NCBI GenBank assembly: GCA_951406725.2
Contig: OX597820.1
Coordinates: 85,002,001-85,066,000, forward strand
Length of the DNA: 64,000 nucleotides
Direction: 5' to 3'
DNA from: Octopus vulgaris
Lineage: Eukaryota
The notes under the pieces were generated by a model that was not told the origin of the DNA, searched no databases, and saw only the letters and a program-made list of their open reading frames with translations. A program made the translations under genes and the position numbers. This document shows positions 14,590 through 60,202 of this stretch, one piece after another; position 1 is the first letter of the stretch; every line of letters begins with the position of its first letter.

Positions 14590-14990
14590 GATACTTAAAA
14601 CTTATCCTCCTTACTTTAAATACATGCCAAGGGCCTCGCGAACGAGGACTTCTTGAAATCAGATCAATACTAATCAAAAGGCATTACCAAATATCATTAA
14701 TAAATGATGGCGTTAAACGGATTAAGAACATATATATACGAACATTAAAGGAAGTCAACCGAAATACTAAACCAGAATTTAAAATACTCCAATGCATCTC
14801 CACACATAATCCTAGAAACAACAAAGCCCTCAAAATTATCATCCAAAATCTACCCATCTTCACAGGAGGTAACACAATAAAGAAAATTTTAGGCTCACAG
14901 CAAAATGCAACCTAAACCATTGAAAAAAATATTAACCAGCGCAAGACTATATCCATTAACAACAGAACCAAAAGTGAAAATATTACACGT
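14590..14990 (+). mobile_element. Penelope-like RT thumb/linker fragment
   Basis: LLEIRSILIKRHY...ISTHNPRNNKALKIIIQNLPI...PKPLKKILTSARL; homologous to 41361-41733. Confidence 0.8.
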
Positions 14991-15047
14991 AATCTTTTTA
15001 CTCAAGGACTAGTAGACCTCACACCGTTCAGTATTCGGTTTGCATCC

Positions 15048-15086
15048 AAAGCAATGATTAGTAATTTTACGAAACCGGTATGCTTT
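15048..15086 (+). ncRNA. Minimal type I hammerhead with A3-U8 core pair
   Basis: stem I AAAGCA/TGCTTT; core ATGATTA; stem II GTA-attt-TAC; GAAAC CG GT; GUA triplet; directly downstream of the PLE fragment. Confidence 0.75.
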
Positions 15087-15326
15087 TGAATCTCTTTATC
15101 AATTCACTATAATGACTTTTATTACTTTTATTCCTACCTCAGTTCATCTAATTGTATATATCTAACGTTACTTTTCTTAAAATCCTTTAATTATTTTATT
15201 TCCAATGTGCATTTTAGCTTACTTTTCTTCTTATTTTCCCCTTACATTTCCACGTGTAGTTTCTAGTTCCTTTTGGTAACATATTTATATTATATACAAA
15301 TATATACATCTATATATGTATATAGG

Positions 15327-15383
<57 letters not shown>

Positions 15384-15458
15384 GTATATATATATGCATA
15401 TATATATATATATATGCATATATATATATATATGTATATATGTACGTATATGTATGTA

Positions 15459-15496
<38 letters not shown>

Positions 15497-15497
<1 letters not shown>

Positions 15498-33149: not shown

Positions 33150-34000
33150 TCCATATAATCCCTTCCACAAGACTAACGAGAACCTTAAATATATCAATAA
33201 ACACTCCTCTCATCCACCTTATTGTATTGAAAATCTTAATTCCAAATATGAGCCGTAGCATCACATACTGTTCTTCTTCTAAAGAAATATCTTAAAATGC
33301 TGCAGCATATTATAATAAGGCCCTTCAGGATGGCAGCTTTATCGATAAAATATTCTATATCCCTCACCTTCTTCTATCATCTAGCCGTAAAAATAGGTCT
33401 CTGAAAGTGTTTTTATGCTCCCCACCATTTACTTTTAATGCTTGAACACTTGCGTAGATACCATAGATACAAGAAAATCGTTAACACACGCGCGATAAAA
33501 GTTACCATTTTTTCCGCCTAATGTTAAGTCATGTATCAATAAACCACGGATGACTCAAGCCTGCTCTGGATGTACATGTAGAGACCAATCTCAATGTTCT
33601 CTAAGACAGGCGTGTGATATATTTTCAGTTGCTTCTCAAGCATATGCTTCAGCCAATTACGACAATATTCGCACAAATATGAAAACATTATATCGGCGTC
33701 GTGGAAGGAAAATCCCCTTCAAATTCAAACCATATATTAACGAGTCTACAAAATAAATGTTCAGTAAGACAGGCGTGTGATATATTTTCAGTTGCTTCTC
33801 AAGCATATGCTTCAGCCAATTACGACAATATTCGCACAAATATGAAAACATTATATCGGCGTCGTGGAAGGAAAATCCCCTTCAAATTCAAACCATATAT
33901 TAACGAGTCTACAAAATAAATGTTCAGTGTGTTCTCTAGAAAAATAGTCTCTGTCTTGTAAAACTTCAGAACCTCCAACGAGGAACGAAATTTTTTTTGT
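33150..34000 (+). mobile_element. PLE RT-thumb to GIY-YIG relic
   Basis: LKYINKHSSHPP, SSSKEI..NAAAYYNKAL, PPFT, GCTCRDQSQCSL and KHYIGVVEG motifs across frames. Confidence 0.8.
33602..33927 (+). repeat. 163-bp tandem duplication (2 copies, apparently identical)
   Basis: 33602-33764 matches 33765-33927 by eye. Confidence 0.95.
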
Positions 34001-58130: not shown

Positions 58131-60202
58131 AGAAAAAGCTACTCAGCTAAACAACAGCACCATTATAAAATACCTAAGTGGAAATATCAACTTCTTTGGT
58201 GGAAGGTGGTAAAAAAATCTATGCATTTCTTGACGTTCTTTGCAGCCCGTGCGAATTTGATTGGTGTACCGGAACAAATCTTGTAAAAGAAATATATACT
58301 GTATAAAAATGTTATCGTTATGAAATTTTCCGTAAATTTCAGTATGGAAAAGTAATAGCCCCTCTTGGACTTTTACTCTGGATTCCATTTCGGTGCGAAA
58401 ATTATGCATGGCTAGAAAATATTTTAGCAAGCTGCAACAGTTGCAAAGTACTTGGAGGTAGAAACAAGTAGTTGTTGTTCTCGACACCGCAAGATCGAGA
58501 AGGAAGTAAATCTTAGACGACTGATTTATTCCGTGTTAATGTCTGTTAGTATCAGGCATGTTAAAGAACACTCATAGTCTGAAACCCATTGCAATTATCA
58601 TACAACACAGGAAATTTAATACATAGTGCATCTTGTAAAAATGCATGCATCCCACAGGATAGCTAGGGAACACTGCAACCTGACTTAGTGTGTTTACACT
58701 TACTCCTATAAAGCTAAAATATTTCTCCGTGTCAAGATAGAGTAAATGGCTTTCTAACGGAGATTCAAATATGCCTCAGTCATTTTTGAACTGGTAACAT
58801 GTTTATATATATATACGTCACAGCTTATATCTATTATTTATTTCATTATGCCCGAACCGTTTACTAGCGCAATCAGTAACAGTATACTGACTGGAATATA
58901 ATAAGAAGAGAAAACTGTCTCGGGTCAGTCTCTTGCCTCTATCCCTTCCATTGTCTGATGTTGAAGAGGAGATAACCACTCCGAAATGCATACATGCATC
59001 CATCAGTCTGGTTAAGGGTTGCTTCGAGCTGATTTACTGTGTGTACAGTCTTGATCGGAAGCAAAACTAGAATTTTTTCCGTTCATTTGAGACCGTGCTC
59101 CAGCTAAGCCATTACAAGTATGCTTTTAGTCATTAATCATTCAGTCGAATGCTTCCACTCTATGAAATCCACCCTCTGAGCATCATTCAGCCCTCACTTG
59201 TTCAAATCTGAATATTAATCGCATTATATCCCCTCCCCTACCTATCATATCTTAGTGAAATGGAAACTTAATAAGACACGAAAAGCATAAAGAAATCAGT
59301 TATCTGTCATGAAAATAAAGTCGAAATCTTGCGAAATTATATTTGGAACAGACTGTCAGACCAAAAGAAAACATACTCGGCTGCCTCTATGCTGGTTGTT
59401 GCATAGAAATTTTAATCGATACCAAGCATCCTTTACAATTTTAAACATTTCGAGATTGGAAGCTAAAACAACACCGGTTGGACTTGAACTTCAGATTTTA
59501 TGACATGGAACTGTATATAGCAAAATATATGAACCGAAATGCTCACCAGTTTTACCAACATGAAATTAAATGAAACAAAGCAGCGTAATAATAAGATTTA
59601 CAAAAAATAATATCCCAAAATAACTGTGGAATATGTTTGTCTCTTTCTAGAGGAGACTGAAGAGTGCAATGTAATTCATTTGATAACATAACAATGGCTT
59701 TTGTGCTGCCATTAAAAAAAGCGACCTGCTGCCATTGTTGGAGAATATTTTCTGCAGTAAATGTTGTAGCTGCTATTATTATTTGTTTCTTTTTTCTTTT
59801 TTTTCCTTTTTTGTAAGTTGACATTGTTGTAATTATAATTCATATAATTACATCATCCTTTTGATTCAGCTGTTTATTCTAAGTGTATTCGTTTAGAAGT
59901 TTACTATTATGTCTGTATTTCTGTAAACATGTACTTCGCTATCTGTGTATACATGTACTTAGTCATTGTATATACATGCACTTAGTGATTTATTAACTTG
60001 GAGCATTTTGCACTCAGTGCATTTCAAACAAAGAGTTAAAACAAAACAAATAAAACATGATATACAGAATAAAGATATTCTGAAACGATATTTTAATGAA
60101 ATATGAAATAGCCTATACAACTACTCAACACAGCCTCCATATCACATTTTGCCTGAACTCCAAGTTCTAAACAATATTTGTTTGTAGATCTATGTCTATG
60201 CT

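Follow-up and report, generated by a model that had tools for sequence, protein, structure and literature searches.

A hammerhead motif in the tail of a Penelope-like element

The window analysed here is a stretch of 64,000 nucleotides of Octopus vulgaris DNA (contig OX597820.1, positions 85,002,001 to 85,066,000), and positions 15048-15086 of its plus strand hold a 39-nt hammerhead-ribozyme motif in the tail of a Neptune-like Penelope-like element (PLE). The remnants of this element, all on the plus strand, begin with a 5'-truncated and frameshifted piece of an ORF (14635-14983), whose translations cover the end of the reverse transcriptase (RT) region and the start of the linker between RT and endonuclease (EN), and which is 83-85% identical to the copies L003, L008, L014, L019 and others. 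At 14983 an internal deletion joins position 972 of L003 to 1494, and position 2162 of L019 to 1648; about 510-520 nt are missing there, and the lost stretch includes the CX4CxxC linker and the GIY-YIG endonuclease as well as the first part of the 3' UTR. According to the family comparison, positions 14984-15047 are the 3' UTR, or pseudo-LTR, upstream of the ribozyme. Within it, 15044-15047 lengthens stem I of the ribozyme in the family, and a private change at 15046 weakens this extension in the window copy. Downstream of the ribozyme the tail of the pseudo-LTR (15087-15290) corresponds to 5' UTR sequence of full-length copies and stops before the ORF start codon. The 3' end of the element meets an (AT)n microsatellite (15281-15497), which is the likely insertion target, and the same type of junction is present at other family loci.

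A first look through the 2.8-Gb genome produced 918 candidates for the repeat carrying the motif; 40 of them were scored, and the best 30 loci were aligned. Translations of the family reveal a single ORF with RT followed by a C-terminal GIY-YIG domain, and a CX4CxxC linker between the two. In 3' copies the ribozyme lies about 197 nt past the EN stop codon; in partial tandems it is also found upstream of the ORF, the start of which is about 225 nt beyond the cut site. A related intact ORF of 784 amino acids (L141:2561-4912, plus strand) matches RVT_1 with an E value of 2.9e-8 and GIY-YIG with 22.4 bits, just under the cut-off of 22.6, and the decayed EN piece of L019 had no Pfam matches. The 784-residue frame belongs to a young U3-A8 family, which may still be active. 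The layout of the octopus element is like that of Neptune-type PLEs, an assignment made by layout, and Nematis has the same linker. As the available text of Craig 2021 (PMC8557442) describes them, EN+ PLEs of the Neptune clade likewise combine RT, a CX2-5CxxC linker and, at the C terminus, a GIY-YIG domain; insertion into microsatellites, 5' truncation and inversions are further points of likeness. The preliminary description of this DNA had linked the motif to PLE repeats carrying minimal type I hammerheads with a palindromic stem III, and its location in a PLE pseudo-LTR bears this out.

The window copy differs from the majority of its subfamily at 21 of 298 sites (~7%), none of which is inside the 39 nt of the motif. 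Truncated, internally deleted and diverged, this copy is likely a dead fossil. The intactness of the motif is no sign of function at this locus: at 4.5-7% divergence, 39 unchanged positions are expected about 6-17% of the time, and the intact ribozyme is what inheritance plus luck would yield.

Two other features of the window are recorded here. A second hammerhead-like motif occupies positions 58955-59006 of the plus strand, with a 6-bp stem I, a U3-G8 wobble core, a 4-bp stem II, a stem III of 5-6 bp that is formable in the monomer, and a UC cut site. Positions 33593-33928 hold a 163-bp tandem duplication with 98% identity.

Sequence and predicted fold of the motif

Re-reading of the letters reproduced the layout of the motif as it had been described. 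The two strands of stem I (15048-15053 and 15081-15086) form six of six Watson-Crick pairs, and both sides vary across hand-picked representatives of the family, in which the stem is extendable to about 10 bp with a single bulge. The core box A3-U4-G5-A6-U7-U8-A9 (AUGAUUA, 15054-15060) has A3 at 15054 and U8 at 15059, so A3-U8 replaces the canonical C3-G8 tertiary pair. Stem II (15061-15070) is closed by G10.1-C11.1, and G10.1 directly follows A9 with no extra nucleotide between them. We count 3 bp and a 4-nt loop in this stem, since with four pairs the loop would shrink to 2 nt; its predicted pair probabilities are 0.70-0.79. Loop 2 is variable in the family, and no recognisable conserved tertiary contact between loops 1 and 2 was found there. 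Next come G12-A13-A14-A15.1 (GAAA, 15071-15074), the palindromic stem III hexamer ACCGGU (15074-15079) and the GUA triplet (15078-15080). The cut is predicted between 15080 and 15081 from the sequence, the NUH rule for the cleavage triplet (PMC3884650) and genomic 5' junctions nearby. Thus U4, G5, A6 and A9, G12, A13 and A14, the A15.1-U16.1 pair and H17 are all present, and only the literal C3 and G8 of the strict consensus (as given in PMC3088659) are absent, which is equally the case for published U3-A8 members.

In the monomer, stem III would consist of 2 bp around a 2-nt loop, and therefore a second copy is needed. The computed energy of the hexamer-hexamer duplex is -8.3 kcal/mol, and when two copies are co-folded the minimum-energy structure is a double hammerhead (-19.1 kcal/mol) with a 6-bp intermolecular stem III. 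The three-way junction, with 6 bp in stem I, 3 bp in stem II and 6 bp in stem III, is predicted only for the dimer. Lunse (2017) reportedly found that small PLE hammerheads with a diminished stem III cleave as dimers, in which the octopus motif would be like them.

A descriptor that admits any Watson-Crick pair at 3-8, provided that stem II is closed by G-C and has 2 bp or more and that stem I has 4 bp or more, found one match in the window and none in 200 first-order Markov surrogates; the motif is therefore not a product of chance. Rfam gave no matches on the window at the gathering score and none on 14950-15200 at E values up to 10. The curated models therefore miss the motif, as had been anticipated for strict searches.

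A3-U8 across the family

The 33 aligned rows, which contain the 30 best loci and the window and were picked for likeness to the window, comprise 31 with A3-U8, one with A3-G8 and one with G3-C8. A genome pattern in which positions 3, 7 and 8 were free had 79 matches and none in the control. Scored by eye, these matches are A-U in 62 cases, G-C in 10, A-C in three, G-U in two, and U-C and A-G in one each, and C-G does not occur among them. Positions 3 and 8 are consequently Watson-Crick paired in 72 of the 79 and mispaired in seven, which is about as many as a post-insertion decay of 4-5% predicts. Pairing is also found in 13 of 16 hand-picked alignment rows; the other three are misaligned in the core. 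A3-U8 is inherited by dozens of genomic copies and is not private to the window copy; the outcome that would have refuted the preliminary description at the sequence level, a CUGAUGA family consensus, did not occur.

These counts also dispose of the reading in which the motif only resembles a hammerhead by chance, or is a canonical one that has acquired two mutations of its own. A3 and U8 are family-wide and the surrogates contained no such motif; moreover, a search for relatives with a canonical or U3 core and this stem II context gave two rows, one U3-C8 and one C3-C8, so the only C3 match there does not carry the canonical pair. We regard this reading as refuted and give it practically no credence.

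Several copies with A3-U8 cores have peculiarities of their own. In one A3-U8 subfamily (L075, L090, L091, L162, L193, L194) the 5' strand of stem I and the core box are tandemly duplicated just upstream of the ribozyme, and joints of a similar kind turn up among the RNA reads described below. The partial-tandem elements L256, L259, L260 and L292 combine A3-U8 cores with longer stem III palindromes (8-10 nt), and L259, L260 and L292 have an extra U within the GAAA box. Directly upstream of one A3-U8 PLE copy, units of about 493 bp with 99% identity are repeated in a tandem array (L218:275-2964, minus-strand numbering).

Origin of the A3-U8 pair

The cluster to which the window belongs has 120 rows, 91 of which were assigned to eight subfamilies. 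Between the A3 subfamily of the window (24 copies) and the closest G3 subfamily (14 copies), seven of 848 shared sites differ, positions 3 and 8 among them: C8 is present in all 14 G3 copies and U8 in 22 of the 24 A3 copies. The groups were themselves defined by position 3, and the chance that should be quoted, that of finding position 8 among the other six differences, is therefore 6/847 (~0.7%). Positions 3 and 8 have changed jointly between sister subfamilies, and the proposal that the two deviations are compensatory is upheld. The starting pair, by contrast, needs a correction. A switch from C3-G8 had been supposed, but subfamilies and tree make G3-C8 the likely immediate precursor, from which A3-U8 likely arose by a matched double change, as judged from sequence comparison. 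The direction from G-C to A-U, possibly by way of a G3-U8 wobble, follows from the same comparisons, and no intermediate G3-U8 subfamily was seen between G3-C8 and A3-U8 among the subfamilies. Beside these groups stands a G3-C8 family (L095, L112, L181, L182) without the G10.1-C11.1 closing pair of stem II.

The tree was built from 58 endonuclease DNA rows. Coverage of 95 or more of 150 residues qualified 57 rows, from which one duplicate was dropped and to which two outgroup rows were added. In a clade with 100/100 support several G3-C8 subfamilies branch first, and the A3-U8 group of the window is nested inside, behind starred branches. Resolution within subfamilies is poor: L019, with G-C, falls inside and L024, with A-U, outside the main A-U group. 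A second A3-U8 cluster lies outside the window's clade, with A-U in 22 of 23 rows, different stems and a GUC triplet. When all 26 A3 rows were forced into one clade, a group named after a quick tree had been viewed, the AU test rejected the constraint (p-AU 2e-5). The A3 copies do not form one clade. There were either two origins of A3-U8, or one old origin followed by a reversal through G3-C8, two histories that are not separable with a root placed by a single outgroup family; in both of them the pair changed more than one time. L292, which has A3-U8 and lies in the window's clade, is not counted as a third origin because its branch is long and its place uncertain.

A Watson-Crick pair is the majority state in all eight subfamilies and in clusters 1-5, and we infer that selection on the 3-8 pairing, acting on the replicating element, is likely. 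On the one hand, both changes are GC-to-AT transitions, the commonest type of mutation, in a genome with 33% GC, and one derived A3-U8 subfamily has a stem II of only 2 bp. These features would suit neutral drift in a decaying ribozyme, in which positions 3 and 8 of a master copy with no further need of the ribozyme were struck, by accident, by two common transitions, and the naive chance of ~0.7% is small but above nil. On the other hand, such drift does not account for paired majority states in every subfamily and in all five clusters, nor for A3-U8 in at least two separate lineages, and the mispaired copies are about as common as decay after insertion alone predicts. Drift is therefore largely refuted, and we consider it improbable.

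Another possible reason for an A at position 3 is that A3-U4-G5 reads AUG, which could have been selected as the start codon of the ORF; there is a precedent in an anole Poseidon element, where the ORF start overlaps the hammerhead (PMC11167929). However, the frame opened by this AUG stops after 11 codons, the long ORF starts about 225 nt past the cut site, away from the motif, and a conceivable intron would join the two out of frame. The idea moreover leaves unexplained why position 8 changed, a synonymous substitution in that frame. We reject this idea as very improbable.

Insertion junctions and RNA reads

Some insertions start at the predicted cut site. In a near-full-length copy (L253/L280), (TA)n is followed at once by the base just beyond the cut, and this copy carries both of the diagnostic A-subfamily alleles that could be scored. 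Genome-wide, 16 copies lose their match to the family in the 9 nt that precede the cut; by eye, these are six junctions at 0 to -2, two at -3 to -9 and eight internal changes. If junctions were uniform, the split of six against two would have a P of 0.011, and four of the six abut (TA)n with TA microhomology, which may contribute. At the cut site there are seven junctions in 13 rows, compared with two in eight at a control site about 55 nt downstream in the same TA context (P 0.09 raw, and 0.012 after correction for anchor frequency, 17 vs 31 in 88 copies). These comparisons share copies, and one further junction, from an earlier pattern that excluded (TA)n junctions, is not counted; only one junction copy is assignable to the A subfamily. 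Taken together, the junctions give a weak hint of cleavage in vivo.

Other copies have different ends. About 22 of 81 copies in the window's cluster begin 5-22 nt upstream of position 3, and therefore many short insertions keep exactly one whole ribozyme. Among the 17 near-full-length loci listed, five still have their upstream ribozyme uncut, and in ordinary copies the sequence continues for about 200 nt beyond the 3' ribozyme; uncut or religated RNA therefore also served as template. No 3' ribozyme was recovered for L253/L280, L256, L258 or L260. Two sets of raw RNA reads, from a species that may differ from that of the window, were covered to about 6% each and gave 170 and 126 reads matching at 85% or more and none at 99% or more. 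The reads of both sets lie on both strands with no site where many molecules begin or end, positions 3 and 8 are absent from the rows shown, and the reads have no bearing on cleavage.

A proposed dimer-cleaving ribozyme

We think it probable that the motif is a minimal type I hammerhead of a Neptune-like PLE subfamily, in which A3-U8 is inherited by dozens of copies. The pair likely derives from G3-C8 through two compensatory transitions that selection on the replicating element has retained, and the motif would cut the element RNA after A17 (15080) once a second motif is bound to it by way of the palindromic stem III. Transcripts that read through or span a tandem would carry a ribozyme at both ends, and the two motifs could join through the palindrome, as the predicted dimer fold suggests. 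The core would then fold with A3-U8 in place of C3-G8; the general acid is the 2'-OH of residue 8, which the 3-8 pair holds in place, and G12 serves as the base (PMC6155905), so that the 2'-OH of U8 and G12 could act in these roles. A cut after A17 would free an RNA whose first part is the 5' UTR, the ORF following after about 225 nt. Reverse transcription would start about 200 nt past the 3' ribozyme, as internal initiation of the kind reported for the anole Poseidon element (PMC11167929) would allow. Cleavage would be slow, with activity probably low, and may need the protein of the element.

A different possibility is that selection acts on the hammerhead fold and its 3-8 pair for their structural part in binding the element protein or positioning the RT, and that A3-U8 cleaves negligibly, any cutting being incidental. 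For the Poseidon element, hammerhead mutants left insertion in vitro unaffected, the ribozyme needs protein, and no RNA-seq ends were seen at the cut site in the data that the consulted portion of Frangieh 2024 (PMC11167929) presents. The minimal hammerheads of PLEs cleave poorly (PMC4209133), A3-U8 is not among the combinations reported as rescuing in the available part of the mutational scan of Roberts 2023 (PMC9901934), and the octopus copies contain sequence beyond the 3' ribozyme. Against a purely structural role stand the insertions that start at the predicted cut, and the preservation of U4, G5, A6, A9, GAAA, U16.1 and H17 across the collected families, an argument that is partly circular as the search patterns demanded most of these nucleotides. 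We consider the structural role unlikely, although it is the most serious competitor of the cleaving dimer described above.

Relation to known hammerheads

The octopus motif shares with the minimal type I hammerheads of metazoan PLEs (Cervera & de la Pena 2014, PMC4209133) the pseudo-LTR site, the short helices, G10.1-C11.1, the palindromic helix III, the predicted activity as a dimer and the many dispersed truncated copies. It differs from them in the A3-U8 pair (G3-C8 in the sister lineages), where they have C3-G8 or U3-A8, in a stem II of only 2-3 bp in the octopus family, and in the absence of an extra nucleotide separating position 9 from 10.1, which some published rows also lack. No purine-3 row occurs in the portion of the supplementary alignment of that paper that was examined. 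U3-A8 is a known natural core variant (Perreault 2011, PMC3088659), and the Schistosoma PLE Cercyon has it in about 1,300 matches (PMC4209133). That variant is likewise a compensatory change of the tertiary 3-8 pair; it keeps, however, a pyrimidine at 3 and a purine at 8, a polarity which A3-U8 and G3-C8 invert.

Inverted pairs have been made in the laboratory. As far as the available text of Roberts 2023 (PMC9901934) goes, only the G-C swap at 3-8 restores activity, and in the Poseidon hammerhead single mutants at 3 or 8 are dead and C3G/G8C partly rescues (PMC11167929). These engineered G3-C8 ribozymes are laboratory mutants, and their state is that of the octopus sister subfamilies.

Engineered 3-8 swaps are also reportedly tolerated, the extent depending on the elements around them (Przybilski & Hammann, 2007). 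In the literature found by full-text search, as far as its text was available, no natural A3-U8 or G3-C8 hammerhead is named, and only U3-A8 appears in PMC4209133 and PMC3088659. The scope of this negative also takes in PMC3884650, PMC6765202, PMC6155905, PMC8557442 and bioRxiv 10.64898/2026.07.22.740005. It is limited in that an earlier report of A3-U8 is possible in Lunse 2017, Przybilski & Hammann 2007, Nelson & Uhlenbeck 2008 and Hammann 2012, as well as in supplementary file 1 and the rest of file 2 of PMC4209133 and in Figure 5 and the supplements of PMC3088659.

Pair states across the genome

A generic pattern for one stem III type gave 6864 matches in the genome and 179 in the control, with variable gaps counting a few sites twice; A3 accounts for 381 of the matches (control 74) and G3 for 216 (control 42). 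By eye, the first 100 generic matches listed are about 80 U-A, nine C-G, four U-G, three A-U, one G-C and three other. Among the first 100 A3 matches listed 79 have U8, and among the first 100 G3 matches listed about 62 have C8, both again by eye; much of the remainder consists of point mutants derived from large U3-A8 families. Repeated families with each of the four Watson-Crick 3-8 pairs are thus present in one genome. The U3-A8 families are young (end branches of ~1%) and the purine-3 families older (4-8%).

A3-U8 is a real, family-wide variant in which selection likely maintains the pairing, and the motif is predicted to cleave. The switch from G3-C8, resolved on a tree and accompanied by only five other fixed changes in 848 sites, is an unusually clean case of natural covariation for a tertiary pair, and the sister subfamilies are a matched set of natural constructs. 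Pairing kept through several lineage switches implies selection on the geometry of the active fold, and this bears on the question of whether Penelope elements need their hammerheads to cut. A broader and more tentative proposal, to which we lean somewhat less than to its opposite, is that PLE lineages in this one genome have replicated on all four 3-8 pairs, and that the purine-3 cores (G3-C8 and A3-U8, with hundreds of copies and at least two A3-U8 lineages) are active in vivo as dimers despite the mutational scan, a class invisible to searches for CUGANGA or UUGANAA. In practice, descriptors should allow any Watson-Crick pair at 3-8. For the one stem III type searched, leaving the pair free adds about 600 raw purine-3 matches (116 in the control) to about 6,300 pyrimidine-3 matches.

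Three further observations concern the pyrimidine-3 cores. Canonical C3-G8 cores seem to be outnumbered in this genome, and young U3-A8 families dominate the first 100 matches listed. Two near-identical copies (L136, L137) have a U3-G8 wobble core and are sister to U3-A8 families; they may represent an amplified intermediate. Finally, a retrozyme-like tandem array with a unit of about 355 bp (L135, at C1:20.002-20.005 Mb, with L134 and L202) carries a canonical type I C3-G8 hammerhead, and its dispersed relatives have U3-A8.
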